Below, piece by piece: positions 12,711-37,000 of a stretch of DNA of 42,387 bases. A program made the translations under genes and the position numbers. Position 1 is the stretch's first letter, and every line of letters begins with the position of its first letter. Source of the DNA: Perkinsus olseni (lineage: Eukaryota); contig JABANN010000289.1 of assembly GCA_013115125.1 (NCBI GenBank), positions 1 to 42,387 on the forward strand. Reading direction: 5' to 3'. The notes beneath the pieces are model-generated. The model was not told where the DNA came from. It did not search any database and saw only the letters and a list, made by a program, of their open reading frames with translations.

Positions 12711-15700
12711 ATGCTGGCCGGAGGCTTCTACCGCGCACTCTTATCCAAGCACTACTCGGGGCCTAGCAGGACGGTCAAGGTCGTCTATAGTTCTCGAACG
12801 GGGACCTCGAAGGCAGCAGCCGGCAGATTGAAAGATACTCTCGAATCGGACAAGATTCGCGTCATCTTGCTCCCAATCGAGCAGTATTCCTACGAGGAAC
12901 TTTGCGAGGAGTCTTATCTCGTACTTTTGCTCTCCACGGATACGGATGGAACTCCTCTGCCCGGGGCTAAGGACTTCACTGAGCAGCTTCGCGATGCTGT
13001 TTACGATTTTAGAGTTGACAAAAATGTATTGGAGAAGTGCAAAGTGGCGGTGATTGGATTTGGTTCGGAAGAATACCCGGCCAAGCACTACTGTAAAGTA
13101 GCCAAAAATTGTGACGATTGGTTGGCCAAACTTGGAGCCCAGCGAGTTTCGCCCTTACTGTGCATTAGCGATACAAGAGACGTTGAGAAGCAAGTTAGCA
13201 GGTAGTAAGGGGGAGCAGCACCTGCCCGACTGGAAGAGCTCTTGAAGTCCGCTATTGTGTATAATTGGCGTGACAGCCGGCGGCGCCCTTTGTGCTGAGA
13301 GTCGCCCAGTGAGAGATCTGACGATTTGTACCATATGCAGTAGGATGTATGAGGAAAGCTTCTATCGAGAGGAAGGGGAGCTGGGAAAGTTATTCAAGAA
13401 TCTCAGGTGCATCGACCTGATTAAGAAGGCGTATGCAAGGCTGGATGCCGAGCCTACTGATCAGCGGACGGCTGATCTCGAGGATGATGTGGAATCGGTA
13501 GGCTCTGAGGAGTCCACGAGTGATACTGAGGATGGCGATGTGGAGGATGCTAGTGGTAGTAGGGGGTGCGGTTACCGCACTGCGGTACTCACGTCAAAAA
13601 GGTTTCGGAATATATTCGGGAAATCTCCTAGTAGTGAAATTTACACAGTAGAAGATCTCGGGATACGCGGCCACTTGCCGATGGTCGAAGGTTTACCTTT
13701 CGTGTAAAACAGCTTGTTGGGTCGTGGCCGACGTCCAAGGCAATTGAGGTCGTGAGTCTTGGTCGATCTGGTAGCCTCGATAAGAGCTGACGTTTCGCAT
13801 TGTAGCGGAGTTGCTCACATGGATGTTCTCCATGCCTCTCGCTCGCGAGGTCCTTGGTTCTATTCCCGGATGTGCGTATTGTCTTCGTACTATACATCAC
13901 TCAGAGTGTTCTACCGAGGAGGGATTCCTCGTCAGGTGCCTGCGGTGGCAACGACAAAGAGATGGTTACTAAGAAGCACCGCGCAGCCCTTACTCGGGAA
14001 GGCTATCGACTGGTTGGCAGCCACAGTGCTGTGAAGCTGTGCAGATGGACCAAACATCAGGTCATAACCTTAGCGATGGGTTTATATACATAAGCATCAA
14101 TGATAAATAGTGTTATTTGCATATGACGGAATAATATGGGAAATTTACAGTGTGTGAGAGTATAAACAAGTGGAGGAGTTTACAGATGAACTCCTTCGTA
14201 GCGAGAATAAACTTATTTCCTTGCAGTGAGCTGCGCGGATGCGCATATTATGTTTGCTAGTCATGCCCTCTCAGCAGTCATGCAGTTTTTTTCCGTTATA
14301 TCATCTTGTTAAGTCGTCGACGACCGAGGCCTTCAGACATGCTGCCATGTTGACGACCTGTTCTCGAGCTGAGCAAATCTTGGTATAGATGTTGAGTCGT
14401 CATGCAAGTTTCAGTCGCACTGCTTTTGCCCACTCGCACGCGCTTCCTTCTGTTGTTGGTGGCTGTCAAGACTTGTATGACTCCATCTCGATCGAGGGCC
14501 GACTTGTCTCTGTCCAGGTCCGAGGTCGAGGAGGATGCTACAAGCATTCCTTCTACGGTATTGAGTCCCATCAGTGCATGGAGGCCACAGCGAGTCTGGC
14601 CTGCGCTAACAAGTGCGTGTTCTGTTGGAGGCATCACCGGAATCCTGTTGGCCGCTCCTGGACGTGGGCACAGGACCCTCCGGAAGAGGTAGTAGGCAAT
14701 ATTTGACCGCGCGCCACGAAATTCGTTGCACGTTTTTCAACTTTTTCGTACCTCGTACCGATCTCGAATACCATAATTTATGGACTGCGAAACGGTCCCG
14801 AAATTCTCGCGTGTTATCTTCGCTGAAACCTTCGCGTTGTTGATTCAGATCGTGAACGGTTGGCTCGGCAACCATGCTGGGATGGTAAAGGAGTTGAAGG
14901 GCGTGCCAGGGGTCACTCCTGAGCGCTTCGAACAGGCTAAGAGAGTGAGGCATTGCGCACTGAGTCTTGTTGGTAGTAAACGGGGAAGGGGGAGCTGGTG
15001 TTGTTGTGGCCCTGTTATGAGTATGCTTACGCGAAGCATATCTGTCAACTGAATGCAGGAGAAATTTGTGAAACGTAAATCGATCTGGATGAGTTGTCAA
15101 GTGCGTTGGCTGGAAGTATCCAAGGTTGACCCTTGCTTGATACAGATAATCAGTCATTCCGTTGAACCAAATAACAAAATCACTACTAGGGGCTTTCATC
15201 GTGTACCTCGGAGTTGTTGTAATAATTTTTGCTCAGCTATGTATCGTACCATCTGCTTCCATTTCGCTGATTATTTCCACTGTAGCAACCGCAATCTTTC
15301 TCCACTAATAATACCAGTAGTCCTTTCTTTCTCAAAATTTATTATCAGCAGTAGCCTCTCGCCGACTTGCGGGGCTCGCCGACTTGCGTGTATTCTTCGG
15401 AAGAAGTTCATCTCGTCTCTTCAGGAGAGCCGATCATTTATCCTCAAATAAATACAGCGCTGGACCTGCTCCATCAGAACGGCATTTCGACCTTTATGGT
15501 CACCAATGGGCAGTTTCCCGAGGCCATCCGATCCCTCATACCAGTCACGCAGCTGTAATAATGGAGCGTGGGGGGATCGAACCTGTGCAGCTTAGGATCT
15601 TACCGTAGCTCTCATCGTTTTCTGTATCTATCCGGCAGTGCATTCGAATTCAGCTTCGTGATTGAGAATTGTGTGGTTCATACCGTGATGAAAATCTCTT

Positions 15701-18425
15701 TTCGATGTGGATTCAGAAGGCACTGTCATAGTATCTTTCATATTGGATGAATTGCGGGCGTCATTTTCAATTGGCACAATTTCTCGGTGTCTTTTCTGCA
15801 ATTCTGTCTGATTCGAAGCCTTCGAGTTTTCGCCCTTCTTGCCTCCGAGTTCATCACATTTCCCGACTTTCTTATGTATTCCTTATGTATCACTAGAGGT
15901 CATTAGTGTCTTGGACGAGCTGTCTGTCGATCCTCATTCCTCGATCAGGTACGTTTCTGTTGACGCCTCCAACGCTGAGGACATGAAGGCCATCGACAGA
16001 CCCCTCTTTGAGGACTTCTGGGACCGTTTTATCGACTCCCTCACAGCACTCAAGCATAAGAAACAACGGACTGTGTAGGAGCCTGAGGGGGGCCTAGCAA
16101 ATTGTCCTCGCGCTTATGGCCTGCAGCATTGCTGTCGTAGTGCTGGAGTGAGATAGTGTTATCTTATTAGGGTCGAGCTTGTTCACGCGGGAATAGCGGA
16201 GGATCGCTTGGGAAGTTGCTTTCGAATGTAGTTCATAGCTCTAGGAGCGCGCAGGCTAGCTATCTTGGTCAAAAAGTGTGACGTGATTCGTATTGAAGTT
16301 TCTTGGTGGGAAGGTGGGCGAGCAGTTGGTTGAAGCAGTTGTCGGTCAGTAGTGGGTGTGGATGCTCATCTTGACATCACTCGAATGCAGACTGGCCGCC
16401 CGGGATGGGGGGAAGCCTAACTCACCGCCGTATCATGAGCTGTGCTCTGTTCTTCCGATCGCAGAGAGTTTTTTGCCGGAGTATCTTAAGTACCTATGAT
16501 GTGCATGGTTGAATAGGTTGTATTTCTAATATGCCTCGTTGGTATGGGAATTCGTCCATTTCCATGTATTTGTGAATGACGTGGTTGGACCTTAGATACC
16601 GTATGACGTTGGTAAAGGGATATAACATATCGACTGCTGCGGAGTACGCGGAGCTACTTCATTTGGGCAACCCTCATTTCCTCGAGATCAAGGCGGTCAC
16701 GTTCTGCGGGAAGGGAGATGGCTCAGCTCAGATGACGATGGAAAATGTGAGTGAATAGCGTGTGGCGAAATAGCAGTGGTAGGGGTGGCAGATCAACTCG
16801 CCTGCATTTTCTGATGGAAAAATCGGATAAACGATAGACTTGAAGAAGGCTGCTATTAGGGTTATATTATCATTTCAGAATTGTGGTCGTTTCGCTCCGT
16901 CCGCCGTAGGGTATCTTTAACACCATCTGCTCTGCCAGGTGCCTTGGTTCGAGGAAGTGGTGGAATTTGCTCAGATGATTATAGAATCATCGCCGTGGGT
17001 TGAAGAACGATATGAGATTGCGTGTACTCATCGGCACTCCTGCACAGTCCTCATTGCCCAGAAGTAGGGGGGCATACGAACTTTGTTTGGGGAGGTAGCG
17101 GGTCTCTTTCGAGTGTGGTAAATGAAGATACCACCTTTGCTGGGTGAAATGTATCGCTTGAGAAATGTCAACTTTATTGTATCAACTTTCGGTTGTATTT
17201 TTGGGAAATGGAGATGTTCGAAGCCATTAATGTTCATTATTGAGAGATTCCAGCACTTCCAAGATTCGCGAATCTTAGATCGTTCAAAGTGGATGGTGTG
17301 TGGCACACCTGGATCGACTATGATAAGTTCACCCAACTAGCCCTGAAGTATTCCAAGACCGGCAAGCCCTTCGCAGTCGAAGAGTACTGGGCTCCCACTC
17401 CTGCATGGGCCGTCTATGGCGCTGAGGTAATAAGGAGGAGGGCTGCAGGGCGTGGTGGGGTGTTCCATTTCCAGTGCTTGCTTATTATATTGGGGAGTTG
17501 GATTGGCCCAAGTAGCAAGTTGCCCTTGGTTTGGAGAATAAAAATAGATTATTACTATTCTTTCCGGGGCGGCGGGTACTATTATTCATAATACGCCAAC
17601 CTACCCTATGAGTTGCCGACCAACTGACAGTTGGTTTGTCCAGCAACTTGCTGGCAGCAAGCACCATAACGGTTTCGAGTATTGATGTGAGTAACGCATG
17701 CAGAAGTTAGTACTGGCCAGTGGTGTGGTGGGTTGATTAGTGCATATCATCAGTATCATCAGCATCTAAAAGGGTGTTCAATAGGCTGCTGCCTCTCCTG
17801 AATTATGGCAGGGCTCTCGGAATTGAATTAAATATGTAAAAGTCAGTTCTGGGAGCATTGCAGGAACTGATGGGAGGCAGCAGTCTATCGAACGTTCGGA
17901 TTCTTAATAATGTATTGAAAGAGAGTATTGATGTATATTTCGAACTGGGAAATTCCCAGTGGAAATTTATTGGCTGTTATTGTCAACTTTGTCAGGAAGA
18001 GGGCTTCGATCCAGAGATGAAGCGGCATTACCGGAATGGCAAGACGCCCGAGCTGGGGAAGCAGATACGAGCGAAGCAGCTTCGGGAGGAGCAGGAGAGA
18101 TCGTCTAAGTGTGAGTGCGGGATATGTTCGGGAAGAATTTCCGTCGTGTTTCGCGTATTTCAACTGTGCGTTCTGAGTTGGTCAGGATCTTCCTTCCGAG
18201 ATACTAGTCTTGTCGTTAGCGCAGTGATGATAGCATAATATCGCTGTAGAGTTCGACTGAGCTGGTAATGGCCGACCGACTCACTCAGGACGACGAGACT
18301 ACGTGGAAGACTGGAATTCGAGTGTTGAACACTTAGTGTTCCGAAGGCAACTCTCGTGTTGTTGGTGGAGTATTTCTCACAATTCAGGTGGCGACGGTAA
18401 GGAGTGCTGTGGTGGAGGATGTTGA
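12711..18425 (+). CDS. TYW1: tRNA wybutosine-synthesizing protein 1 (flavodoxin + radical SAM), 12 exons
   Basis: Flavodoxin domain (YSSRTGTS...AVIGFGSEEY), GYRLVGSHSAVKLCRWTK, RGRGGCYKHSFYGIESHQCME, radical-SAM CANKCVFCWR, HCALSLVGEPIIYP, FMVTNGQFP, QLYVSVDA, RTVYRMTLVKG, EIKAVTFCG, WHTWIDYDKF. Exons: 12711-13201, 13407-13555, 13936-14060, 14518-14688, 14849-14972, 15425-15554, 15949-16074, 16596-16746, 16939-17063, 17279-17426, 17996-18110, 18388-18425. True start may lie upstream. Confidence 0.95.
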
Positions 18426-20353
18426 GAAGAATAAATGCGCGTCACTTGTTTTATAGATAACGTTACTTCCGGTCTCGGCGAAGATGTTGTTGAGTTCTTC
18501 GAGTAAAAGTTGGGATTGATGATCGAATGGTTAGTCCGTGGGCTTCAACCCAAAGGATCTATTGGGACTGGAGGGTTTTCGAAAAACACTTTCCTGAATT
18601 AGCGGACATTGCCCGAGAGATATTAAATAAAGGCATATGAAGTATAATGATATATCACAAGACACTCATATCAATGTGCCGGGATTGAACAACACGGCGG
18701 AAGTGGGTGTGAGACAATGGCCAGAGTTCTAACCTTATCTGTTCTTGAGTTACAAGGCCAAGAGTGTACTGTTATGTTGAATCACGAAGATACTCAGTTA
18801 GTAACCTAAAAATTTTAGGTTACTGCGGCGCGATCATCGCAAACCTTGACGTAAAATTTCTTCGGACGGGAACCTATAAAATTTATAGTATAAATCATAA
18901 CGAAGACACTGTAGAGCAGAAAAGGTATTGAATCAAACCTGTAGAGTTTGGAGAAGATTCAATGTCAGTGAGGGAATTGCAGATGGGGCAGATGTTCAAC
19001 TTGGTGGGCATTTTTTAATCAGAGAAACTGGCTGAAAATAAAGGACTCAAGACAGGAGTTATCATAAGCGAATAGCAGAAGATTGAAATCACGAAGGTTT
19101 GTTCAATGCTTGCAACATTGTGAGAAAGATCCAGGTTGAATCCCGGGGATTCAATCCCCCTCAATCCCCCTAAGCATATGACTTACACAGTGTGTGAGAG
19201 TGTCACTCTTGATAGTTCATCCGGGATGATCGGGATGAATCATCCCCGGAACGAACGCCCCGGCATTTTGTTCAAGGCAGGGTTTTGCTGGTACTCATAA
19301 TATGAGTCTCATATTCAGAAAGGATAATTCATCATCGTTGACGACGATATAAGTTACGTATATAAGTTATCATATAACATAATATTGTAAATATTTGAGA
19401 CTAGCAACACATTTCTACTAACAATCTATGGGTTATGTTATCAATCTATGATAGATTGCGTAGATCATCTATCACCCCAGTTCGACGGTTGATGATGAAT
19501 CACAGAAGCAATTCGGCCCTTTTGGGACGAAATGACTTTTCATGCACCCGGAATCAGTGTTGGGTTAGTATTGGGAGGTGGGTCAGAATGAGATTGGAGG
19601 CGATAGTGGTGTCGACTCCGCCGTCTGTTTAGCAATCCAATTCTGAAGCTCAGGTTGGTTCTTCATACACGGAGGGGTGAGTGTATTAAAGTATGATACT
19701 TTTAGTATCTCACTCGCGGGCCGCGAGTCGCGGCGATTGGGTTCCCGTAGATGAGAGTGTTGTGTACGCGCCATTGCCCCGCGATTGTTAGCGGCAGCGA
19801 ATGGAGGCCGCGCGATGCGATAGACTGCCGTGCACAGCACTCGTGCCGGGTGAGGAGGGATGAGGCGAGAAATGACTCTTGCACCTCTCACGAGAGGTTC
19901 TATGACGACTTCACAGTTAATCTCACATACGTATCTTGTACGCGACGCGTAACACGCGTGCGCAAACGACGCCCGCGGGTGTGTTCGCTCGCATCCGCAT
20001 TTAACATTCGATAACAAGTTATTCTTGTTCGAACACCCCGCGGTATGGTGTCACAACAGCGCGGCAAGTCCATGACTCTCATTCTCATTCCACTTCGCTA
20101 CGATGACGTAGAGTCGACGACTAGTCCGCGAGCCTGTCATGCCAACGGACCGTGCGATTGGCATGGAAGCTTCAACATTCCTGCTGGCCGCAGTTTTTAC
20201 AAGAACTTTGTGTCCCCAACTGGTCAGATCGGATGATGGGCGATTATTAATGTGGCAATAATTCCGTGCCCGGAGTTTGTCACGCGTGTTACAACAGCGT
20301 CATTCTATGTCGGGGCGCGCGGGAATTTCGGCTCGTCATCCTTGAGTTGAAGC

Positions 20354-23300
20354 ATGGCTCATGTAAGATATGATAATCTCCTGGAATCTTTCATACCTGT
20401 TCTATGCAGGGTAAACCTCCCAGGGTAGATTGGGATATTCCCAACACTTACGATATCCGTCAAGTAATTGGAGCGGGTAGTTATGGTCAAGTGTGTGAAG
20501 CTTACGATAAGGTAATCCGAAGGCCGGAGGATCTATTCCCAGGGGGGGTATTTTCAAATTGACTCATGTATTGTAACGACTACTAAAGGTGTTCATAATT
20601 TTCCAAAGAATTGTAGCTATAATTTTAATACGGAAATAAGACAATAATTGTGGGAGTTTTCAACAAGTCCTTTCCGAGCACTTCCAGGATTGAATCGTCC
20701 CGTATAAATCACGAGGGGTATATTTCTGTGATATTCTTATTCTCGAGAAGGGCCAGCAGCAGTATGTCTTGTTAATGCGGAACCCTTATCGTTGGACTTC
20801 TCTGATGCGCTTGACTCAGGGTTAGTCCATGGTCAGGACCATCACCGATTGGTTGCTATAAAAAAGGTGGAATTTGTCTTTGACGATTTGGTGGACTGCA
20901 AACGGACACTGAGAGAGATAGCGATCTTGAACAGGTGATAATGAGAATTATTCCCGCGCGCCACGAAATTGCCGCAATCCTATTTCGCTTCAGGTTGGAC
21001 CATACTAGCGTGATAAAGATCGTGGATCTCGTGGTACCCGAGGACTTGGTCAAATTTAATGACTTTTACTTGGTAGTGGACGAGGGAAGGGATAGTATTA
21101 TTGGTATGGTTGTTAAGAATCTTGTGAAATTAGTCTTCATGCCATTCAAAAGGGCACTGTTTGAGTTGAGCATCTTTCGTGTCACTTACCATAAAAGGCT
21201 ACTCGTAGTGGCTTCTGACTGAGCTTAAAAATCTTGTTCTAGTGATTGTCATTAGTTTTCGGTCGCGGCGTTCTTCCCTGGGCGTCGCTTCGAACCATTT
21301 CGAATGCACCGGCACCTTTTTCTTTTGGGCTCATATCTTCCATTCACTCGCTCCATCTGTCCTTTACTCGCGAACTTGCAGGGAGAAGGCATCAAGCGTG
21401 ACGAAGCGATGCTTTTTTCTGAGGGTTCCGCAGTCCTTTTTGATCAGTTTATCGCTGCATCTTGATTGAACGATTCTCGATCGAGTTTCGTGCAGGTCCT
21501 GGAGATGGCCGATAGCGACATGAAGAAACTATTCCGTCAGCCAATTTTCCTCACAGATCTTCACGCGAAAACTCTTCTGTACAACCTTCTGGTTGGCATC
21601 AAGTTTCTACACTCGGCAGGAGTGTATCACCGGGACTTGGTAGTAACTCGGGGTGACCTGGTGGAATTGAGTTGGTGGAAATGTGGTATTGTTTCTCTCG
21701 CTACTTCTATACACGCTAGGAAGTTAATAGTCAGGCGAAATTATTTGCAAATCTTTTTTCAATATTGGCTGTCCGAAATTTTGCTGGTCAGCCGGGTGCA
21801 AGTCGCGGTGGAAGTACCGTGATTTGTTCAAGTTGTGGTACAGCTTATTTAATATATTTCTCCCTATGTTCAGAAGCCAGCGAACTGTTTGGTTGACCAA
21901 GACTGTTCAGTGAAGATATGCGACTTTGGCCTATCGAGAGCGGTGGGAATGGAAAAGGAGTTGAAGAGCATGAAGCAGGGGGCGTCCACGATCTTCGAGG
22001 AGGGGGCGGAGGCTGCGAACGACCAGGAGGTTATAAATGGGAGGAAAGGGGGGCCAGACCTTTCATATCGTGGGATGGGGTAGATTTGAACGCGTTGATT
22101 GGTCCTCGACGTGAAGACGACTGTCCGACTGAGGCGTGCGAAGTATCGGAACCAATAGGTTGGGTCGAAGTGGATTTTGGCGTGGAGTGATGATATCAGT
22201 CGTGTTAAGGTCCGGTCTAGGGCGAAATTTATCATCATTTTTGGTGTTGTTCAGGGGAAGCAGAAGAAGGGTCGGGAGTTGAAGCGCCAATTGACGGGAC
22301 ACGTTGTCACCAGGTGATGCCGATAACTTAAAAAGAATGGCGAAAAATCTGGAATTGAGAAATTGAGAAGCTGGAAAATTGTAAATTTGTTTTTGGGAGG
22401 GGTTGATAGATGATGGCAGTGTGCTCTGATGTTACACTTTAACCAGCCGATTGGCGGGGAAAAATCACACTTACTAAATCTAGGAGAGTCGTGCAAGGGC
22501 AGGGCGAGCAGCGATCAATCTCAATCACAGATCATCATCAATTAACACTCGCTCACCCTTTGTAGACAATCCACATGACTCTCGTCGGTCGGTGTGTTTG
22601 TGCAGATGGTATCGCCCACCGGAGTTGATTTTTGTGGAAGATATGTATGATGAGGCTGTCGATATTTGGAGTGCGGGATGTATCTTTGCGGAGTTACTTG
22701 GTAATATTGGGAATGATTTGGGCGATTTATGGTAGTAATAGCATCGCGCTGAGTTTATCATGTTACTTCGGGCATGATCGCATTGCTTCGATTTTCGTCA
22801 CCGCTGGTTGGTTGAAATTACCGCCAGAAACTCTCGGCGCATAGTTTTCACTACGTAATGATTGCAGTTTATAGCGTATCTCAGGTTGAATAGTTAGCGA
22901 AATATGGAGCTTGTGTGTTGAGAATCTTCGGCCGGATAGACTTTCTCAAAGTCGGTTTCAAGTTTGAGCTGATAAAACTGAATAGAAGGTCTCAGTAAAG
23001 CTGAATCAACTAGAATGCGTTGTTTTGAAGTACTTCGTCACGACAAGCCGATTTTGTGCGCGGTGATGGTTAACGTTTTCGGTATCCACTTTTGTTCGGT
23101 CGAATTCAGGGTTAACCTGTGAATAGCTTTGATGAGCATCGAGGTGTATCTTCTCAGGGATGTTGAAGGAAGTGGTGTCTTTCCCGTCGGATCGAGGGCC
23201 TCTGTTCCCGGGCAGTACATGCTTTCCTTTATCTCCGGATCATAAGCATGCCAACGATCATAAGGTGGGGGAGAATCGAACCGGGGGTCTATGGGATGGC

Positions 23301-24052
23301 GGCCTGAGGCTTTGCCCTGTTAATCAGTTCCACGCTCGAGGGAATAAGGATCAGTTGAATATGATATTCAATGTTATTGGTACGCCTAGTGATGAGGATG
23401 TTGAGTCGTTTGAGGAGAAGGATATCCAAGAGTGAGTTATCGGTGCGGGTGAGGAATTTCGTGGCGCGTGACGGCGAGGTGGCCAGGTACTTGCGGTGCT
23501 TCACGAAACGTCCTGGAATAGGGATAGCAGAAGTCTTCCGGGCGGCATCAGGTAGAGAATTTCGTGGCGCGTGACGGTGGGAAGGTTCCTCATTTCCATA
23601 GCTGACGCCTCGGACCTCTTGGAGAGGATACTGGTCTTCAATCATAAGAAGCGCCTTACTGTGGGAGAGTGTCTCGAGCATAGTTACTTCAAGGAAGTAA
23701 GAGGAGTGGAATTAGTTGCGAAAGATCAGGTAGGTGGGAGGTTCGAACTCGGGGTTATTGGAATAGAAGCGGTGGATTATACCGCTGGAGTATCTTGACA
23801 GGTATTTCTGCCGTTCGAGTTGGAATCTACTTTGGATGAGAAGGATATGAGGCAGTACTTTATACTAGAAATGCAGAAATTCCACCCGGAGGTAGTAGTA
23901 GTAGTTATGATGCTTCACGTTGACGGCAATTTCGGTTTGGCATCTTCTTGTGTGATTGATCGGTTGCGGTCGTGAAAGTAGCATAAATTTTTTCGAGGTA
24001 TATCATGCCGCTCTCTCAGGTTAAGATACCTCAGGAGTTGACGGTGAAGTAG
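20354..24052 (+). CDS. Mitogen-activated protein kinase, alveolate MAP2/MAPK3 type (TGH activation loop), 14 exons
   Basis: [99 protein letters not shown]. Exons: 20354-20362, 20410-20511, 20837-20934, 20994-21072, 21496-21639, 21874-22029, 22255-22313, 22606-22700, 23158-23264, 23328-23431, 23487-23551, 23602-23729, 23802-23891, 24020-24052. Confidence 0.95.
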
Positions 24053-24283
24053 ATCGTCGCCGCTTGTGATACGCATGTCAATGATAACCGTTGTTCGCGG
24101 ACTTGCCGTCTTGTGTTAGAGCTGATTCAATATTAATCGTTTCAGGGGGTAGCTACGAATTGGGTGAAAGATGGTATTCCCGGTTCCTCATTTTACCCTA
24201 CTTTAGAGCACCGTTGTTCATTGCGGACTGGTCTGACGGACTGCGGGGAAGTAGAGTTCAAGTTGTCATATTTTTTCGATGCC

Positions 24284-26545
24284 ATGGGGTCAGCCCCTTC
24301 CATAACGGAAAGGATTCTCTTCCCCGCGCCCCGGTCAAGCTATTCTGCGTCCACGCCCTCCCTGGTCTGGTCTAGGGACTGTAGAAACGGTAATGACAGG
24401 CCGTTTATGCTGGTGAGTTTGCACGAAGATGATAATTTTCCATCGCTTTTTTCAGCAGTTGGGGCGTTGGAAAGTTTTAGTGTAATAAAATGAGGAACTG
24501 CCGTAGAAACTTACATGGGCACATGTACGCGTTGGTTCGTACGCGAGGGATAAACTCTCCGAAGCTCGTGAGCGTATATCTGACAAAGATCCTTCGTAGT
24601 GCGACGGAGCCCATAGTGAGATACGATTCTATCACAGTCCCTGTGGCAGAGTGTCCTCTCTGACATCCGGAACTCGCCTTCGAGCGGACTCGTTTGTGTA
24701 GATACCCTCGGGAGGGAATGCTGGGCCGTTGACAGGCCCGGCTGTTATTTACTTGCATGGCAATGCTTGTGATCTTGGCCATGTGAGTAGGTGGGTGGAA
24801 TTATGAAACTAAATTTAGATTCTACAGGATGGACAGTATCTTAGCTCACCCGTGGCTTTGACGGGGTCATAAGATTCCTCGCGGTCCTCTGTGCGTTATG
24901 GAGTTTCGTACGAGTACCTGATTTTTATCCTTCACTGGACAGGTGCAATTCGAGCTGCAAGAATTAGCCAGAAAGATACGTGGCACTGTCCTCGGTGTCG
25001 AGTAAGTCGGTTTGGCTCCCTCATACAGTAGTCCCTCGATGACCTACGGCCTCGGACGCGTGTTGGAAGAGTGAGATTTTTGCTCTTGACCGCGCGCCAC
25101 GAAATAGGAGGGTGAAGACCCGTATTCTGCTGACCGGTATCTGAGTAGGACTCATTATTCGGTGACCTCTCGGTGTATCTTGCTCACCGTAATTGACTCG
25201 CTCGAGCTCAAGATACCCTGGTTACGGAGTATTGAACAATGGAGTGGACTCACCGACAGCTAAAGGAATACAAGAAGCGGCTGAGCATGCTTGCGAGTAT
25301 CTCACCAAGAAGCGGTGAGGTCGAGGGTGGCAACTTAACAGCTTGGTCACTTACAAGGTCCTGTACATCTGGAGTATTGGCTTATCTGCGTATGTCCCGG
25401 GCCTACGATCTACCAGGTCGCCTGTCATTGACGTTCAACAGGGCTCCATTAAGCAGCAGTGCTCCCCGAGGCCCAGTCGTATAGCGGTCTCTATATGAGC
25501 GATTTGTCTGCTCGGCCCTTATCCAGTGGTCTCATTTTCACATTCTACAATGGCCGAATGGAAGTGATCTGATTTTCGGCCGAGATTAACTGAAGTTTTG
25601 GTATGTACGCATGCACGCGTATCCTGTTCAGGTCAATTCCACCGAGCAGTATTTTCATTTTTGGTCGTTCTATTGGTTCTGGAGTAGCGGCCTCCCTAGC
25701 CTACTCGTTAGCTAGTGTTGGCACCTTCATTGGTGGTTTGATACTGCAGAGCCCGTATCTCAGTATTCATGACGTTGTTCAGGATTACTTCCCGCCCGGT
25801 AGGATGGGTATCTTCAGGTTGAATCAAGCATCAAGTGAGAAGTGCTCGTCTGGCGTCTCATTTTGCCTTGAGGAGAATTGCGACAGTATACTTTCATGCC
25901 CTGGTGTCGATGATGGAAGTTTCATTTGCTCACGTATCTTCTATGTGACATAGACTAAGGAGCGTCCATTTTTCTTAGGCAAATTCAAAATTTTTTCGTT
26001 TCTCGTCAACTAAGGGGAGTTTAGTCTTATGTCCGTCCAGCGGATGCAGTCTTTACTGTATTTTTTGCGATGCTTCTGTGAGAGCGTCATGGCATCTTCG
26101 TTAGGTAAGCTAATCATTTCTAATGAATGGGAGCCATCGAAGTGTCTGTCATCAACTGAGCTTGCCTCCACGCCGCTCCTCGTAATACACGGCAAATGTG
26201 ATGAGGTTATCAACGTAAGTCTCGATTCCGTGGGCCTCGTGGCGCGGCGGTCTTTTTTGTTGAGCCAATCGGATGGGATGCCGGATCGGATAAAATGCTT
26301 ATTCTCAACAGTGAAGTGTACTGTGATGGCGTTTAGGTCAGGCATGGCGAGGAGCTCTACGCTCTGGCGACCACTGCAAAAAAAAGAATCGTACTGCCTC
26401 CGAGAGCTACACACAATCAGTTTGATGTTTATGATGATGTTATCGGGTAGGAGTGCTACGATGGCATCACTGTTCTGATGGGCGTCATTCCCTTGGAAAT
26501 TTCGTCAGGAGTTCAATCTCCGAATTTTACAGTTGTATATCGTAA
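24284..26545 (+). CDS. Alpha/beta hydrolase, ABHD17/ABHD13-like (candidate depalmitoylase), ~8 exons
   Basis: MGSAPS..ILFPAPRSSY; VIYLHGNACDLG; GVEYPGYG; nucleophile FGRSIGSG; GLILQSPYLSI; LVIHGKCDEVINVRHGEELY; catalytic His in ATHN. Last exon (26509-26545) less certain. Confidence 0.88.
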
Positions 26546-26837
26546 AATTCGAGGGTTACAGTGTGTAACGTCAGCGACAGGGAGCTCCCTAATCTCTATC
26601 CTCATGAGTAGGCCTCCCATCTCCTGTTGTGAGTAGCCGGGGCGTGAGGCGAACGCGCTCTAGCAGAACTCAGACTACATGCCATGTAGTACATGGTGCT
26701 GTCACAGGACTGCTGTGGATAGCTGGGAGCTTGGCGGCCCCAAGTTGGCGCCATTAACTCATGGCGGGTTAATTTGTATCTGAAGGGGACAATGGCTGTT
26801 CAAGTTGTGGACGGCAGAACTGTGATTCCCACTGTAG

Positions 26838-27410: not shown

Positions 27411-28855
27411 GAGTGAGATTATAGTAGGCCTAGCGAATTTCAAGAGCTGTGGGCTGAATAGTGAGCGACGTTGCATACCAAGATTCCGAAGTGACCATAA
27501 ATTGCCGCCGATTGATGCACTGCTTCCGCGAGAGGATGAAATTTCGAAGCCACGAAGGGCAACCCCTTGTGGCTCTCGGGCTAAGATCATCATGTAAATA
27601 AGATGCCGGGGGATTTGTTTCGGGGTTCTTGGTCCACTGGACTGTCCAATCTGTCTTTCGCTGAGGCCTCGGGTGGAGGCCATTTTTGCGTTTTACAATT
27701 CTGGAGTCTCCGTCTGCCATTCTCTAACTGAGAGGGGCATAGTGTTTCTGTATTCTACCAAATCTGCCACTGGGTGAGTTGCTCGGATAAGGCTGCTGAG
27801 CGCCGCTCTGCAAAAACCCTGCATGCATTGCAATCGTGTCTCCATTTCCTCAGGCCCATTGCCGAGTTCATCGGATCTCACCACAAGACTGCCTCCGGTG
27901 GCGGTGGTTGACGTCTCATCTGCATCACGTACAATCGAGCATTGCAAGCCTGATTAGGATTGATCGTTACATGAATCATTATACTTGTCAATTTCTCGCT
28001 CGCTAATTTGTGTAGTTTTATCCTGGAGCCTCTACTGTCTGTCACCTTCATGAGAGCCTTCCGACCCTCACCTGTGAGGTACCACCTGACGATGGACGGT
28101 TGTTAGACCACTCATGAATGGTCCAAGCTGGGCGAATCTGGTCACCGATCAATAGTAATTTTCCTACGGCATCCCAGCGACAAGGTGTGGCGCCTTCGTT
28201 GGCCTCTGGAGGATTGTGCCGTATGAGCAGCCTTGTTGTTCGGCATGCGTTTCAACGTTGAACTCGGCGAGTTTGCCGGCTGATTCCATCAGCTCAGTAT
28301 GAACGCAATCTAGGAAATCCTCAGGAGAAGTGAATAGTATCGCGGAGGGCCTCCTAACTGTCTTTACCAATAACCGAGGTCGCGTCCTCTGTAATAACCA
28401 ACAGAGCATGTTTTCGCATTAGCTATGGTTTGGTGGCAAGGTAAGTAGTGTTTCGAAGCATCATAGGCGTCGACTCCGTGAGACTCTTGTGACGACCACT
28501 TGAACCTCCACATCACTAGAAATTTGGGATCAATGGGTAGCTTCACAAGCAATCGGCGATGACCCTGTAGGTTCATCGCCGATTGCGCATTGTCCCATAC
28601 GGTAAAGTTGATATCGCTCACGTTTTTCTCTTCCGATCTCTTGACTGATCTAAGCTCATATGCTCTTTACAAAACGCTGGGCAGACGACTTGGGATAGCA
28701 GTAACTGATAATCAGTTTCCCCGGCCAGACTATTGACAAGGCGAACGTCAGCTTTATTCGATGGAAAAGACTCAGCCAAAGAGACTGATGCCCTGTACTC
28801 TCTACTAGAGAGTCTCTAGGTTGAGACGAACGTCACAACAAGTCGCCCCAGACAA

Positions 28856-29245
28856 TCAGCATTGTGTCAGAGCGAAGTTGAGCAGATTTACGACGTGGAG
28901 GTCCTTGCCGTCATAGTGGAGATGGGCGAGGTCAGAAGCCTTCAAAGGTGCACCGATTTTGGTGATCAGGTCCTGCAGCTTGATGGTGTCGGTGACCGTC
29001 AAGTCGCTTGTCGAAGCGTCGTACTTGTAGGGAACACCGGCCTCACTGCCGCTCTTTTCCGTACCCTTAGTGGGAGTCCACGAAGCCGAGATGTCGAAGG
29101 CTGTATCACTTGTGACAGTGACCTTGACAGTGCCTTTACCCTTAGATGGTATATCCGGGGACCCACAGTAGCTGCCTGATGGACGCCCAGCCTGGAGTAT
29201 GGCGTGAGCAACGAGGAGAACAATGACGCCGAAGAGGGTGCGCAT
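28856..29245 (-). CDS. Small intronless secreted protein, 129 aa, two cysteines
   Basis: Signal peptide MRTLFGVIVLLVAHAILQA, then PSGSYCG, a beta-rich body and a terminal Cys. Clean ATG-to-stop ORF with visibly C/G-ending codons. Confidence 0.85.
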   Translation of the reverse strand: MRTLFGVIVLLVAHAILQAGRPSGSYCGSPDIPSKGKGTVKVTVTSDTAFDISASWTPTKGTEKSGSEAGVPYKYDASTSDLTVTDTIKLQDLITKIGAPLKASDLAHLHYDGKDLHVVNLLNFALTQC

Positions 29246-29899
29246 TCAGCCGTGTGATTTTATGAACTGAAATTTGCACATTAGGAACGAGTAGAACTTT
29301 CATTTACAGCTGGCTACCATGACCAGACACTCCCCTTCTTGAAGAAGTATAAATTTCCGCCGGAAATTGTGCTGACTCGTTCCTGTTGTCTCCCCTCTGT
29401 CCCTCTACTGCATGGGAAGACCAGATCAACTGGACGGTTGGCGCGAATGCTGCCTCCTCAGCAGCCTCCAACTCGAGCCTTATGTGAAAGCTTCCTACTC
29501 TAAAACGGAATTTTGCGTTCGGTAGGTTCACAAGGTGATCGATGTTAGAGATTTTCATGGCCACTCTGTGCGGGAGCTAGCTTGTGGGCAGAGTCTGCCC
29601 ATAGGCGGGGACAGCGCTGAACTTGACAAGATGTGTCGTCCCGGATATTTTCGCTCACCGTTACAGGGATGTTAGTTGGTCATATATAGACTACGACCCT
29701 AGCCGTTCACTGCTGTGTTAGCCAGGTTGAGCGGCGCTGTTGCTCTCGTTCCCTAGGCCTCATGACTCAAACTGATGGCCTCTCGGATGCACTATAGTGA
29801 CAACTTCCTCCATTGCTGCTGAGTTTAATGAATCTCAAGGTCTACCTACATTTATTTTTTGAGCGCATGAATTCGCAGTAGTGTTCCGTGCTATAACCT

Positions 29900-32450
29900 A
29901 ATACAGTGTGGCACGGTGTAGCTATTTGTGACGGGGCTCAAAGTGAATTGGTGACATCGGACTGGAGAGGACTTTGGAGAGAACGTGTGTTTAGTAGCGT
30001 GACGAGTTATGCGCGCGATTGCTCGGATGATTGCACGCACCGAAAAGAAAATGCGCATGGAGCAAATGCGGGTAGCGACGTTGGGACTCATGGTTCGCAG
30101 CAGCCATGGTGGTGGTTTGTGTCACCGTAGTGCACTAGTGGGAGCGTCCAAAGCTAGCCAAGCTAGCCAGCTCAGCTTCGTAGGCACTCTAGAAGGTGTG
30201 TATCGCATCTCATGATCTACTGTTGGTGGGGTACCGCTTTCTCACGTAGGCTACGTGTCGAAGCTCCATATTTACCCATCACATGAATCGTTAAATTCTT
30301 TCTAGTCGTATCGGCGATTTCGTTCCGGAGACTAAAGTCGTTCGGGTCTAGGGTTGAGGACCTCAACTTGAGGTTGTATTCGCGCAAAAAGCCTCCTGAC
30401 TGTTTCGTGCGGGGATTACCAAGCTTCTCAATGTAGTTGAAAACGATTTGAATGGCTGCCGAGTTCCTGACTGAAGGTTGGGATACGCAAGATGAATTGA
30501 TGGTTGTGAGGCAGCCCCCTAACAAGTAATGTTATCGGCTGTTGTTGTGCTCGGCACAGCACAGCACTTGCCAACCGATTCTGGATTCAAGCGCCATACT
30601 ACGGAAGGGCAACACTTGTCGTCGGCCCTACATCGATACACCCGCAGTGATGGCGTATACGCGAGATGCAAAAACGAGCTCTATAGGACTGTGGCAACGA
30701 AGTGGATTACTCGGGTTGATCTGTTAGCTTCATCCAAGGGGTACTCATCAACTGAGTATCGATCCATAGTCATCTCGTATCTGCCTGAGTTGGATGTCTT
30801 CACTGTGGATTCCTCAGACTGACCCCAGTCGTCTCATGTGGTCAGGTGGATGTTCTGGGATCTCCCGACTGAGCTGTGGATATCCGAAATATCTCTCTAC
30901 CTACAGACAGTTCTTCCGAAAGGTATCGAGGACTCCAGGGTACTTCGTGGGTAAGTTGGTACGGAATATTGTACATCGATTTCGCTACGCCCTATTCGGT
31001 CGCTGCAGTGTAATATTCTGGTTGGTGTATGTGAGCCGCATTTGACTCCGCCCCTACCGCCGGGGGTATTACTGTAAAATTTTCGGAGGGTGCCTACGGA
31101 TTGATGCATGATGGGCTGAGCCGAGGAGAGCCCCCTTGTTGACACCATATGGCAGCGTTTACTACGATGCTTGTGTCGCGTTCCATCAGATGTTTTCTGG
31201 AGACGGCTCTCCCGGATTGTCTCATCTGGCGACCAGTCAAAGATTTACCGGGTAGGCTCGAAGGGGTGGTGCTCCACCGCGGGTGGACCACCGTTGGTCG
31301 TCTCGTTAGCTGCGTGTCACGCAGTGCGTGGTAAAGTTCTCTGTTTAAAGTTGGCATGCAATGCATGCCATGCATCGAGAGCCTCGGGACCTGGGTTTAG
31401 GGAACCCCCTGGTAGACTTGTCCCTTTCGCACTCCACGGTCCATCATGTAACCGTCGCGAGCCGTTTCGTCTTCAGTGAAAATTCTTCACTCCACGTCCG
31501 GGCCGGAGTTTCCAGGTGTAAAATATGATTTTAGCTGTTCTCCATAGGCTGGTAAAACACCTCGGATTCGCAGTCAAGCGCACTCGGGATAATGCATGCA
31601 TCCTGGAGGTCCCTGTGAACAAGGTCGTAGTTTCTGCAATGTGTGGTCGCTGCCTTGGCGAGATGGTCACTCTGCTGCACCCTGTTGCGGGCCTAGTAAG
31701 TATCTGGTCTGGGAATACCTACCATCTATGGGCAGTTCTGCCATCGCCATCGTACTGCAAAGATGTTACGTGAAGTTGGGCCGTGTCGCCGGGTTGTCCC
31801 CGATAATGCCAAGAATCTGAATGGCCCTGAAGTCAGCAAGGTATTGGATTAATATTACATAAGGATGGTCCACTCTAGTGAATATCATCCCCAAGGCAAT
31901 TCGCCTTCAGCGAGATGGCTACTCCGTCGCGATCTGTTGCGGGCCTCTACTTGCGGCTTCATGAATTACGATAGATGCTACTTCTGCGGCTTGGTGCATA
32001 ACCCCACTCTACTGCTGCAAGGAGTACGGAACGTTCCGAGCGTGACGCTCGGCAAGGCTAGTTCAAGGTGCAACGAGAACCACGGTGCCTCGTGTTGCAA
32101 GAGCGAATCCCCTTCTTCTCCGTCGATCCGGCTACGAATGCACTTGTAGCTATCAGCAGTGGGGCTTCTTTGTGGTTACATGCTTCATTCGCCCGAGAAA
32201 CCGCATCACCTCAGAATTGGTCATACTCTTTTCAACACGCAGTCGATGAACCTTGTTCAGTCTTCAACACCGGACAGTGTCAGTGTCTGTCACTGTCCAT
32301 TGGACAGTATCGCGATACGTTCCAGTCGCCTGACGTCCACCATTCCTCGGATTCTCACCAAACCCGGTTGGGCGAGAACGGTTGGGCCAACCGTTAGTAA
32401 CCGAATACACAAGAACACTTCAACGATTGCAGCGGAATCGGTTCAAAACT
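29900..32450 (+). mobile_element. Heavily decayed LTR retrotransposon pol (Ty3/gypsy order RT then integrase)
   Basis: Fragments in correct order across frames: MFWDLP and LQTVLPKGIEDS (~30850-30936; RT VLPQG), LVYVSRI (~31022; eroded YVDD), WRPVKDL (~31227), AHSG*CMHPG (~31578; integrase Zn finger), PSKYLVWEYLPS, VVPDNAKNL..VHSSEYHPQGN (~31793-31900; rve core). Boundaries approximate and no LTRs identified. Confidence 0.65.
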
Positions 32451-32704
32451 TCTAAGATGGATTGATTCAATCAATCCACTGTGAAATCTATCATTCTTGC
32501 TCCGTGCTGTAGGTGTTGGTGTGAAGCGTATCGATGATAAATGCATCGTAGCGATTGTGGCCTCCAAGGACTATCATGAGCATTTCCGTACCCGAGAAGA
32601 GGGGTATCGAGATCGGTAAGATGCGATACAGACTTAGTGTGTGCTCATCCGCATCTTTTAGATGGGAGGAGATGGCCCGTCATTTGGAAGATGAGATCAT
32701 ACCG

Positions 32705-33956
32705 TCATTGATCATTCACCGAAACTCTCCTCGGATGTAAGTGTCGGAAATGACGGTTCTCCGACTCGATGGAATTCCAGCCTTTTCCGTTCGCTTGCGT
32801 ATCTATCAAAGTCTTTGATTCAAAGATGATACAATCGTTGCAATTCACTACGCGTTTCTCCTCGCTGCCGTCCTCGCCTGTATCATCGTGCTCATATTGC
32901 GAGTACTCTACAAGATCATCTGTGATAGACAGTGGTCGATATTTCTATCGTGGATTTTCCCGCTCGCTCGCAGTCATTGCAGGGCATCTTGAACACTCTC
33001 AGGAGCATATTTCACATAAGCGAGTCTTTTCTGTGTTCATGACGCGACCGTCGCCTCCCGCCGGGCAGCATCGCTGTGGGTTTATGCTCATTAACTGCTC
33101 CTCTTCAGAACGCAAGAGTGGCTTGATTTCATCGGCTTCAATCTGCTGCCAAGGCCTCGAAGGTCGTACCTAGCTCCTCTGCCACCGTCTCCACTACAGC
33201 CACGTGAAACCGTCGTCTCTCGACCTTTGAGAGTTCGCCGTCCCCTAGCTGATGGTAAGCCTTCCATCTCACACCGTCCTATGGATGGAAATTTGCCATG
33301 AGTTTCATTGGAATTCATCTGGGAATTTTCCTTTGCTCTCGTGGATGCTTACATCCCTATCGTCATCAGTTCCGTTCAGCGTGAAGTAATATGTTGAAGT
33401 TAGCGATGTGCTGCCTACGGTCTCAATGACGAGTGCTAGTATTTGATTCACTCAAATGAAAAATGTCGTTGACATGTCCCACAATCTGATGCACCGCGAC
33501 CGGCCTCTCGCCAACTCTATCATCGTTGATCATCGCAAGGAGAGGCTGCTTGGCTTGATAGACTCTTATGATGGCGCGAATCTATCACACCCATTGTCAG
33601 CAATCGTTTCGTTATCGTTAAGCTGATGCATATATGAGGCAGGGCACACCTCAACTTTGAATACCTTTCAGATCCTGCATGGCGCGCTCGATCGAGGTCG
33701 CCCCGACGTTTTTCATACTAAAGCTTCTAGTCAGCGATATTGTCGAGTTGGCGGTCTGCCAGGGAGATCCCTTTGTATCAGCCTTGTCGCTTGGCCAACC
33801 GGCCGACCTGCGTACGGCAGAAAAAATTTTTTTCAGAGTAAGTTTATCGTTGTTTTCTTGCCGCAGAGAATTTTTCGTGCAAAAAGGTTTTGAAGCAAAA
33901 TGAGATACCTGTGAGTCGCAGCAAAATTTTCGCTGCACTGCTCTTATCATCCGCAT
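32705..33956 (-). CDS. Possible multi-exon hypothetical gene divergent from COG2
   Basis: Several open minus-strand segments bounded by AG/GT (e.g. IRAIIRVYQAKQPLLAMINDD..., VRPSRPWQQIEADEIKPLLRSEEEQL). No recognisable domain and I could not build a fully consistent model. Confidence 0.3.
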
Positions 33957-34042
33957 GCCTCACGATTGCTAATGAACTCGTCATTCCAATTTTGAGCGAA
34001 TTCCATTTGCATCCCGCTGGCTAACAGGTTTGTCAGTTTTCT

Positions 34043-37000
34043 ATGGCGGGTGTGGCGGTTCCTCTTTCCGAGTTTACAGAGCCGGGAGCAGATCCAGTGG
34101 CGATCATACAACGGTATCGACGCAGAGGGGTGTCGATGACGGACCTCGTGAAAAGCTTCACGCGCCACGAAAATAAGGTGGATTGGATCAGCTAGTCGCC
34201 GGTCTGTACATGTTTCTGTCAGATACAAGAGGAGCTCGTTCAGCTGATCAACGATCACTACAGCGAGTTTATCGGTCTGTCTACTAAAATGGAGGATGTG
34301 CGTGAAGCTGCAGCAACTGAGTCGTCCCGCACAGGTTCGATCCCCGGGCCCTCTATTCTAGGTATCACGCAAAACAGCTCGTCTACGCCCCCCTCTAAGC
34401 GCAGCACTGGAATCTTCTACGGCGTCGACTACAACGGTGAAGGGGATGGTCGGCGAGGCCGAGGCGCTCATGAAGGAGAAAGAAAAGATTAGACGCGAAC
34501 GATCAGTGAGGCGGGTGACGGAGCAAGGAAATCGGAAGGGAGAAGTTTCCTTTTGGTTTCTTAGCGAGCAAATAGTTCCGTTGTTTTCGAAAGAGCGATG
34601 ACTGTGATCTCCCCTTGGTCAATCGACTGCGGTCTGCGTACTATGAGCTCTGTTTCAAGCGTGGGTTTTTATAATCCAGTACACACGAGCAGTGTCCTTC
34701 GATCGCTTCGGCTTACTACATGATATGAACTGCGTCTATTCAATCGTACTTGATGATATCGTTGCGAGAAGTATCAGAAAAAAGGCGGGAAAGTCGCCAG
34801 TTATCTTTCAATTCTGTATATGACCGTCTCGACCTCAAGATTCTCCTTGTTTACAGGCATCAGTTCCCTCAGTTACTTCGTCTCTACAAAGACAACCGTG
34901 CATTATTATCGAAGATATCTGCTTGTTTGGCTGCTGCCTCGTCCCCCTCCAACGACCACCTCACCCTAGCTGGCTATGCAGCCCTCGAGAACAGCGCCAT
35001 CGAGCTCACGAGGATCGAACTGGCCTTGGCGGAGGCTCAGTCGATAACCTCCGCAGGTGAAGCCCTATTGAAATATGGTTCACTCTTTGAGCTGGACAAG
35101 TCCTCGAAAAAACTTGAAAACTTGCAATTTCTTAACGGTGCTCTCATTGTATAGATGCTTCGTCCCCAGGATTATACGTTGAGTGAATATTCTCATTCCT
35201 GCATGCCCCATACCACACATTTGTCAACTTTTTGTTGATTGTGTAGATACCTCTGGAGAGTCCGAAGCCACCAAGTACGCGGATAGCTTACGTGGCGACT
35301 TGACTACCGCACGCGATCAGCTTCACCAGACACTTTTGCAGGAGTAAGGCTTACTGAGTTAATCTTGCTTCACTTGCATTCCCTCAACTCAGGCTCAATC
35401 GTCTCCTGAAAGTATTCGCCGAGGCCCCGTCAGAAGACCCCTCTTCTGTATCGTCAATGTGCCTGATTGCCACCTGCAAGGGATTGGTGAGTCGGCCAAT
35501 TTCGTGGCGCGCGACATTTCTCTTTCCTCAGGTTAATCTGGGGCATACCAGTGACATTTGGAGTTCCGTTGTGAGCACTCTCGTTGAAGAGCAGCTGAAA
35601 GATATTGCCGGTGAGGACAGGTCCCCGGTTCGATCCCCGGTTGCAACATTTCCCCTTCGGTTTTTCAGCCGTTTGCATGAATTGTTAGTATCAGGTTCGG
35701 AGCAAGGCGGTCTGGCTGTGGCTTCCTCGGGAGCGGCAACCGCAGTTCTGCTAGCCCCGTACTTCGAGAAGGTGAAAGCAGTTTTCGGTAGTCAGACCAA
35801 CGCCTTGGCAAAGTTGAACGAGTGCCTGAAGGGTGTTGAAGGGTTGCATTTATTACCGGGTAAGAAACACCGCAGCCAGAGATCGAACCAGCGGTTGTTT
35901 GCATGGTTAATATGCCGCTTACCGACTGAGCTGGCTCGATTTGGAGTATTGGACATCATTCCTTCTCCAATGCGAGTATTCAGCTGCTAAGATATCTATA
36001 TGAGAAGATATCTTTTTGTAGCATAACTTGGATGAATCGGCATTAATTCAGTTCTCAGAGTGCCTCCTTCGGCCTGTCCTACTCGACGTTCAGCAGCGAG
36101 TCCCATCGGTTTTCATGCCAACCTACCCGGTTCAATTCGCTGAGAACTATGCTGCCGCGCAAGACTTCATAAGAGGAGTGGGAGCTGGTCACGAGCCCTA
36201 TCTTATGACGGTGAGGGTGCGATGTCCTTACTGGGTTCGAACTTGCGACCTTTATCTTAGGCGTCGTGGCTAACAGCATTTGAAGCAAAATGGAAGACCA
36301 ACGTGTAGGGATCAACGTGTCGGCTTGTCACCCCAGCTAGGTGGAATCAAATTTTTCAGCTATTTTTCATTACGGCAACGAGAAATTGCGCAGCAAGTCC
36401 GGAAGGAGCTATTCACAAGGCAGGACAACCCTTTGGCCATCCTGCGCTCTCAGGTGGGGATCTTTCGGGCAGTCTGCCGGAAGCATGCTTCAACCCTAGA
36501 TATGGAAGCACTCTGGGGCGCTGGCTGAATTGATGCCGCAGTTGATTCCGAGGTGCCTTCATCTCACCTGCGACCTTCTCTCGGCTTGGCAGGGCCACAT
36601 CAGCTCTCAAACGAAGTCAGGATCGACCGGTACGGAGACTACTGCCTCGCACGTCACACCCATATCATTCTTTCTGCCTCTGCCACGCTGCTACATTAGA
36701 TTCTTCTCAGATCCTGGTCTCGCTCTTTCATTTTGCAAGGACCTCTCTGCCGTGTCTAGTGAATTGGACCCTGATACAGTTGCTGGATTGGGGGCTGATA
36801 TCGTGAATATAGCGGGAGAGGAGATGGCAGATGGAGGTACATCATTCAGCTCACAGCGACTTCGGCGCCTACACAAGCGAATGAAGCTTCTCCTCGTTAT
36901 ATCTATCTCCATTCTAAGCAACACTGTTCGTGCAAAACAGTATTGAGAGTCGTTTCGATTCGATAATGATGAACTCACTCATTACTAATACAGAATTGAT

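Follow-up and report, generated by a model that had tools for sequence, protein, structure and literature searches.

A short motif family, in both orientations, associated with intron starts in Perkinsus olseni and of possible mobile-element origin

We analysed a 42,387-nucleotide (nt) contig of the shellfish parasite Perkinsus olseni (GenBank assembly GCA_013115125.1, contig JABANN010000289.1), referred to here as the window, and found a family of short motifs that is real, strongly non-random and associated with intron starts, that occurs in both orientations, and that none of the element families we tested explains. The motifs lie in or beside the introns of four genes, all on the plus strand, which encode tRNA 4-demethylwyosine synthase (TYW1), an alveolate MAPK2, an alpha/beta hydrolase and COG2. 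The principal motif, motif A, has the core CGCGCCACGAAAT, and a second one, motif B, reads GGTTCGAWYY. Tentatively, and at somewhat less than an even chance, we favour the reading that motif A is a short module, recognised at the DNA level, which arose by copy-paste in the manner of a mobile element and is tied to the 5' ends of introns; we infer this mobile origin, a binding protein and a present function.

The motif A core occurs exactly six times in 42.4 kb, at 14710 (+), 20957 (+), 25093 (+), 23456 (-), 23559 (-) and 35499 (-), and once more with a single mismatch at 34161 (+). The positions of the six 13-mers agree with an original prediction made from the letters of the DNA, which had called their number far beyond chance. 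The seven copies with at most one mismatch compare with 0.08 expected from dinucleotide-preserving shuffles, and none of 100 shuffles reached seven. When all 10-, 11- and 12-mers were counted on both strands of the window, the motif A family ranked first by a wide margin. At up to three mismatches there are 19 matches against 10.6 expected, so the extra matches, including three in the first 12 kb, are at chance level. Beyond the seven copies only two weaker ones stand above chance: 20307 (-), with two mismatches, and 26234 (-), with three mismatches and a 10-mer match. No copy with two or fewer mismatches was found at 36-42 kb or at 1-12 kb, and the predicted absence from the first 12 kb was thus borne out. 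Four of the seven copies are forward and three reverse, and both weaker copies are reverse. Read in motif orientation, the three bases 5' of the core are Y, C (eight of nine copies) and mostly R, and the base on its 3' side is T in five of seven, giving a consensus of about 17 nt, YCR-CGCGCCACGAAAT-T. The nine copies are listed below.

14710..14722, plus strand: exact core in TYW1 intron 14689-14848 (160 nt), starting 22 nt in; RNA joint 14686/14847
20307..20326, minus strand: degenerate copy with two core mismatches, upstream of the first recognisable MAPK2 coding exon, in what may be an untranslated region, a promoter or a 5' intron
20957..20969, plus strand: exact core in MAPK2 intron 20935-20993 (59 nt), starting 23 nt in
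23456..23468, minus strand: exact core in MAPK2 intron 23432-23486 (55 nt), starting 25 nt in
23559..23571, minus strand: exact core in MAPK2 intron 23552-23601 (50 nt), starting 8 nt in
25093..25105, plus strand: exact core in hydrolase intron 25002-25212 (211 nt), starting 92 nt in
26237..26246, minus strand: partial core (10 of 13) in hydrolase intron 26215-26336 (122 nt), about 23 nt in
34161..34173, plus strand: core with one mismatch in COG2 coding exon 1 (codons T-R-H-E-N), ending 4 nt before donor 34178
35499..35511, minus strand: exact core in COG2 intron 35487-35531 (45 nt), starting 13 nt in

Six of the seven copies with at most one mismatch are intronic, as are seven of all nine, and the seventh is coding and ends 4 nt before a donor. 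The residues that correspond to T-R-H-E-N of this coding copy are TRPEN in a P. olseni relative and KRHGN in P. marinus. Five of the six intronic copies start 8 to 25 nt after the donor. For these five the predicted position near splice donors holds. It fails for the copy at 25093, whose distance from the donor that homology supports, at 25002, is 92 nt; a GTGAGA at 25071 had apparently been taken for the donor. The tiny host introns that had been described are there (45, 50, 55 and 59 nt), and the two partial copies were recovered as well, that at 26237-26246 as an intronic 10-mer match and that at 34161 in coding sequence just before the donor.

Motif B occurs eight times in the window against 0.84 expected, a number reached in none of 100 shuffles. 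Seven of the eight copies are intronic, in the same genes and on both strands, at 20, 9, 11, 37, 17, 21 and 24 nt from the donor. The motif is near-palindromic around TCGA, and its commonest form fits, at 10 of 11 positions, the RNA polymerase III (Pol III) B-box consensus, GGTTCGANTCC. Several other short introns begin with possible decayed copies, which we excluded from the count. The 29 nt around one motif B copy, 15560-15588, are 83% complementary to 34329-34357. The copies are as follows.

15574..15583, minus strand: TYW1 intron 15555-15948 (394 nt), 20 nt in
23273..23282, minus strand: MAPK2 intron 23265-23327 (63 nt), 9 nt in
23740..23749, plus strand: MAPK2 intron 23730-23801 (72 nt), 11 nt in
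34334..34343, plus strand: COG2 intron 34298-34361 (64 nt), 37 nt in; an RNA joint confirms the intron
35627..35636, plus strand: COG2 intron 35611-35694 (84 nt), 17 nt in
35880..35889, minus strand: COG2 intron 35860-36058 (199 nt), 21 nt in
36234..36243, plus strand: COG2 intron 36211-36260 (50 nt), 24 nt in
11462..11471, minus strand: match to motif B of uncertain membership, where no gene has been modelled

We then considered the placement of both motifs together, using statistics that were chosen after the data had been seen. Of the 16 introns shorter than 100 nt, 9 contain motif A or B; of the 28 longer introns, 4 do (Fisher P = 0.006). Nine of the 13 intronic copies fall in short introns, which make up 10% of the intron sequence (per-base binomial P = 5e-7); for motif A alone the figure is four of six copies (binomial P = 0.0013). 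Eleven of the 13 start 8 to 25 nt from the donor, for which random placement inside the same introns gives P = 9e-5, or P = 2.3e-3 with the last 15 nt excluded; the simulations ranged from 9e-5 to 4e-3. In introns of 160 to 394 nt, three of four copies lie within 22 nt of the donor (P = 0.003). We rejected a fixed distance of 22 nt between donor and forward copy, which is true for 14710 and 20957 and, for 25093, only relative to a donor-like hexamer and not to the homology-supported donor. Such donor-like hexamers lie 22 nt upstream of the 25093 copy (the GTGAGA at 25071) and 7 nt upstream of the 23456 copy (at 23449), at the same distances as the real donors in the sister copies. The 85 nt at 25071-25155, inside the hydrolase intron, resemble a complete small intron: they start with GTGAGA, contain motif A at 22 nt and a CTGAC that is like a branch site, and end in TAG.

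The introns were defined by mapping related proteins to the window and choosing GT..AG boundaries for frame, which gave 44 introns in the four genes; two of those in MAPK2 (21073-21495 and about 22070-22254) are approximate. For TYW1, the exon 12525-13205 is 100% identical to the P. olseni protein. A protein search confirmed a flavodoxin domain and gave nothing more. The C-terminal part of MAPK2 corresponds to a partial P. olseni protein, and the gene is about 70 to 90% identical to P. marinus MAPK2. The hydrolase is about 93% identical to a related protein (P0079), and COG2 is about 90% identical to a P. olseni protein with COG2 Pfam domains. The partial P. olseni MAPK2 protein (P0002) placed introns 23432-23486 and 23552-23601, the P. 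marinus MAPK2 protein placed 20935-20993, the COG2 protein (P0077) placed 35487-35531, and P0079 placed 25002-25212 and 26215-26336. Public sequencing runs were used as contigs, and their RNA-type status is a program's guess. RNA-type contigs of three such runs skip 14689-14848, 34178-34222 and 34298-34361, with GT..AG ends, and an RNA joint at 34175/34221 supports the COG2 intron 34178-34222. All eight more 3' TYW1 introns, from 14689 onward, are likewise skipped with GT..AG ends, and the DNA run contains no intron-skipping joints. Most donors of the TYW1 introns at 12711-18425 read GTAGTA, GTAATA or GTAGG, not GTRAGT. Exons start with GT after 19 of 47 acceptors and with G after 26 of 47, which echoes a G-H signature reported for dinoflagellates. 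The available text of a spliced-leader RNA (SL-RNA) study gives the donor of the Perkinsus SL-RNA as Gguag (PMC3101222).

Similarity between copies extends beyond the core in particular pairs. The repeat finder recovered both sharing pairs of the original prediction: 14703-14722 equals 25086-25105 at 20 of 20 positions, with the flank TTGACCG in common, and 23454-23474 equals 23557-23577 at 21 of 21. The latter is a direct pair 103 nt apart, which over a longer stretch, from 23449 and 23552, matches at 23 of 27 positions. Two inverted matches were also found. The sequences 20307-20326 and 20950-20969, 650 nt apart, agree at 18 of 20 positions including the 7-nt flank ATTCCCG, and AGCTTCA, which flanks the 34161 copy, is found again in inverted form at 34300-34309, where the next intron begins (34154/34300, 10 nt). 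Three of the four flank-sharing pairs are at most 650 nt apart in the same gene, and outside these particular pairs the flanks of motif A are unrelated. The sequence between donor and core is unconserved even where 20 of 20 positions are shared downstream, which points to a homologous unit with sharp edges.

A public DNA run (X1, about 42 Mb of contigs) extended this picture beyond the window. On a 20-kb stretch, 66 of 84 X1 contigs fit only partly. Among the loose ends listed, the best supported lie exactly at motif edges: before 14704 (11 contigs), behind 14723 (6), before 20951 (6), and behind 23473 (7) and 23474 (8). Beyond the motif edges the X1 sequences agree with one another only at 0.42 to 0.49. 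The divergence of these contigs where the motif ends implies that elsewhere in the genome there are sites whose likeness to these copies is limited to about 20 nt, so that motif A appears to be dispersed through the genome. The original prediction would have been undermined had the motif been a fragment of a known larger repeat; against this, similarity between introns is at most 13 to 21 nt, and the X1 contigs part at the motif edges. Public metagenome contigs contained the 14-mer at 120 loci, each with a single match, with no flank consensus and a median GC of 0.58. We rejected these matches as chance, mostly on unrelated contigs, none of which resembles the window (blastn E <= 1e-5).

The copying of motif A is indicated by the pair-specific flanks, three of four of them local, by the apparent dispersal of the 20-mers, by the donor-like hexamers at 25071 and 23449, and by the precedent of introners. 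According to the model that we favour, motif A may originally have been the end at which a protein recognised a mobile element associated with introns, an origin that would be comparable to the terminal-repeat module of introner-type elements in the sister lineage of Perkinsus (dinoflagellates and Amoebophrya). Copy-paste, often local, would have spread the module into the 5' regions of introns, where it would have been kept or copied, whichever way round, at a distance of between a few and 25 nt beyond the 5' splice site. There, a sequence-specific protein would read it as double-stranded DNA, in place of the spliceosome reading it as RNA. Motif B would represent another such module. The original prediction had likewise proposed a DNA-level element, either a protein-binding mark or a mobile remnant. 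Its observations stand, namely both orientations, intronic location, proximity to donors and tiny introns, and the choice between its two alternatives is not cleanly separated by our data.

Introner-type elements that insert in either orientation have been described in Amoebophrya (available text of PMC7789003) and in Symbiodinium and Polarella (available text of bioRxiv 10.1101/2020.10.14.339549). In the latter source, introner-like elements are recognised by similarity from splice site to splice site at blastn E <= 1e-10, by inverted termini and by target-site duplications that supply splice sites. The Perkinsus motifs resemble introners, which in the sister lineage are repeat families confined to introns, several to a genome; certain classes of introner generate introns whichever way round they lie, and short introns are frequent among them. 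Unlike introners, they share only 13 to 27 nt and have no inverted termini, hairpins or duplication signature.

Several results weigh against a mobile origin. When 49 introns, each with 5 nt of exon on either side, were compared all against all by blastn, the best similarity was 21 nt (E 1e-6); intron pairs that share a motif do so over 13 to 21 nt, always internally and never from splice site to splice site, as strict introners would. When 14 introns or units were folded as DNA, neither terminal inverted repeats nor hairpins emerged, with z between -1.54 and +1.25 relative to shuffles. A 4-nt duplication, in which the intron start repeats at the start of the next exon, was found at four of four positions in 0 of 47 introns and at three of four in 10 of 47, with coordinates off by 1 to 2 nt for 3 of the 47; the GT start of 19 of 47 next exons is suggestive only as a splice-site-supplying duplication. 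A core that never varies, bounded sharply and separated from the donor by unrelated sequence, is more suggestive of a binding site under selection than of a decaying insertion. Moreover, an asymmetric element inserted either way does not predict a near-donor position in both orientations and in long introns. To our knowledge, no mechanism mobilises a unit of about 17 to 27 nt. By our estimate, which is not a measurement, several thousand genomic copies could give the X1 flank-sharing counts by chance, and the basis of the analysis is one 42-kb window and one DNA run.

The main rival is a purely functional account, in which A and, separately, B are putative protein-binding sites just downstream of 5' splice sites. 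We regard it as nearly as likely as the model that we favour. Such sites could pause or mark RNA polymerase II (Pol II) or chromatin and so serve the co-transcriptional definition of very short introns, or they could have an architectural role inside genes. In that case the flanks that copies share would be part of a composite site extending over about 20 nt. Evidence for selection on double-stranded DNA comes from the 13-mer that is invariant in six copies, from sharp edges beside unrelated donor-to-motif sequence, from the irrelevance of orientation, from the donor-tied position (11 of 13 copies at 8 to 25 nt, including three of four in introns of 160 to 394 nt), and from the near-palindromic form of motif B, which the sites of dimeric DNA-binding proteins often have. 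The functional account also agrees with the excess of motif-bearing introns among short ones (9 of 16 against 4 of 28) and with the lack of exact motif A copies at 1-12 kb and 26.5-34 kb, regions that have no mapped short introns. It does not, however, explain why neighbouring copies share 7 to 8 flank bases that differ from pair to pair, which argues for copying rather than independent selection, and it gives the donor-like hexamers at 25071 and 23449 no role. We know of no precedent for DNA motifs coupled to splice sites in this way, which lowers its prior probability, and of no protein that binds the motif.

Three known kinds of DNA-bound site bear comparison with the motifs. Extra-TFIIIC sites, which consist of a B-box only, occur in Pol II gene regions in yeast and human. 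Motif B is like them in being B-box-like, dispersed, present in both orientations and unaccompanied by a tRNA gene; it is unlike them in its placement 8 to 25 nt inside introns, which is no known property of such sites, and the likeness itself is one of sequence. At intragenic CTCF sites Pol II pauses, and the exon upstream is more readily included; by analogy a DNA-bound protein downstream of an exon would affect splicing whatever the strand of its motif. Pausing of this type is the only kind of mechanism known to us that fits an orientation-free motif beside a splice site. In contrast to the Perkinsus motifs, CTCF recognises a different motif, and in vertebrates such sites are uncommon and do not mark the majority of short introns; we know of no CTCF in alveolates. 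Finally, the motif A core contains GGCGCG and CACGAAA, in the manner of an E2F site and of the fungal SCB (CRCGAAA). The E2F likeness, which the original prediction had pointed out, did not survive closer inspection: TTTSGCGC, the E2F consensus, matches the window twice (7524 and 12023) against 2.59 expected, with no match at the copies, and the Perkinsus sites are intronic, not in promoters. SCB is read by the fungal protein SBF, which is not expected in an alveolate.

An RNA-level element would act in the pre-mRNA, where forward and reverse copies could pair over 13 to 20 GC-rich base pairs and loop out exons, so as to affect the order of splicing or to promote exon skipping or back-splicing. 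In another version of this account, each orientation could be a separate intronic splicing enhancer, with the TGAC beside the core as a branch site. MAPK2, hydrolase and COG2 each have at least one forward and at least one reverse copy, with the forward copy 5' of the reverse one within the coding part, and the complementarity of 20307/20957 and 34154/34300 extends into their pair-specific flanks. A sense-strand TGAC lies beside the core in four of eight copies, about 14 to 26 nt from the acceptor in the introns at 23432 and 23552. Even so, we consider this account improbable. TYW1 has a single copy, the near-donor position is left without explanation, and no intron folds better than its shuffles. 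An enhancer read as RNA should be strand-specific, and the motif is absent from spliced RNA contigs, which leaves no role in mature mRNA.

Very improbable, in our judgement, is the capture in introns, by insertion or repair, of fragments of small-RNA genes or short interspersed elements, with motif B originating in a tRNA T-arm or B-box and motif A in a different RNA of Pol III type. The 10 of 11 B-box positions of motif B and the short, sharp-edged, two-way occurrence of both motifs are in its favour, while ARAGORN found no tRNA gene in the window, Rfam returned nothing at the copies, and by inspection the flanks of motif B form no T-stem. The Rfam search gave no match at any copy, either at the gathering score or at E <= 10 on 21.5 kb. 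In the sub-window 35470-35710 it gave three unrelated matches below threshold (leuA-Halobacteria, E 0.32; a CRISPR repeat, E 1.5; a long non-coding RNA region, E 5.5), and in the sub-window 23250-23810 none. We rejected a relic of a miniature inverted-repeat transposable element (MITE) or other DNA transposon, since the inverted pairs 20307/20957 and 34154/34300 enclose exons and have opposite mutual polarity, and no duplications were seen. A palindromic MITE, suggested by possible inverted partial cores near 14710, 20957 and 35499 and by CTCAG-type ends, was dropped because folding did not support it and acceptor-like ends are expected in any short intron. Apparent likenesses to parts of U6, U1 and 7SL RNA and to a tRNA anticodon arm were given no weight.

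Literature searches, which did not extend to supplementary files or the P. olseni genome paper, returned no description of the motif or of introner-type elements in Perkinsus. A 9-mer of the motif occurs in the text of 375 papers, and among the 30 listed none concerns Perkinsus. Among work on Perkinsus transposable elements nothing relevant was found, and the accessible portions of two SL-RNA papers and a Merlin transposon paper do not contain the sequence. The available text of the Merlin paper describes conserved transposase open reading frames (ORFs) without recognisable termini in P. marinus.

The remainder of the window contains other features. Pfam searches of 20 ORFs outside the four genes gave one weak hydrolase match and otherwise none. 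At 28608-29274, RNA-type contigs reach about 70,000-fold word depth with many variant letters between runs; a minus-strand ORF there, 28856-29245 (129 amino acids), has a hydrophobic, signal-like start and no Pfam match, and probably encodes a very highly expressed, multi-copy, small secreted-type protein. The segments 6206-6483 and 10371-10622, 4.1 kb apart, are about 90% identical and contain ORFs without a Pfam match, which suggests, from the sequence, a duplicated gene in the first 12 kb. The region 30526-33671 is spliced in RNA-type contigs, with introns of 239 to 1261 nt and joined exons that have no clear open reading frame; it may be an untranslated region, a non-coding RNA or an unresolved gene. 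Two weak matches to C/D-box small nucleolar RNAs, at 22163-22242 (-) and 26427-26480 (+), have E values of 8 and 2.4 and lie far below the gathering score.

In a speculative extension, which we think unlikely as a whole, Perkinsus would mark the first 10 to 35 bp of many introns, above all those of 45 to 85 nt, with one of at least two motifs, the 17-mer A or the palindromic, B-box-like B. This would amount to a strand-independent, DNA-level intron-start code, bound by putative dedicated proteins, possibly a domesticated transposase and a TFIIIC-like factor, and would make transcription or chromatin part of how very short introns are defined. If the mobile origin that we favour is true, Perkinsus would add a very compact intron-associated repeat to the introner phenomenon. 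If the functional account is true, orientation-free, splice-site-proximal DNA motifs would be a new layer of gene-structure information, and the 17-mer would give a direct experimental handle on the recognition of introns of 45 to 60 nt. Under both accounts, the motif offers an inexpensive means of marking one class of introns across the genome of a parasite about whose gene regulation very little has been learned.

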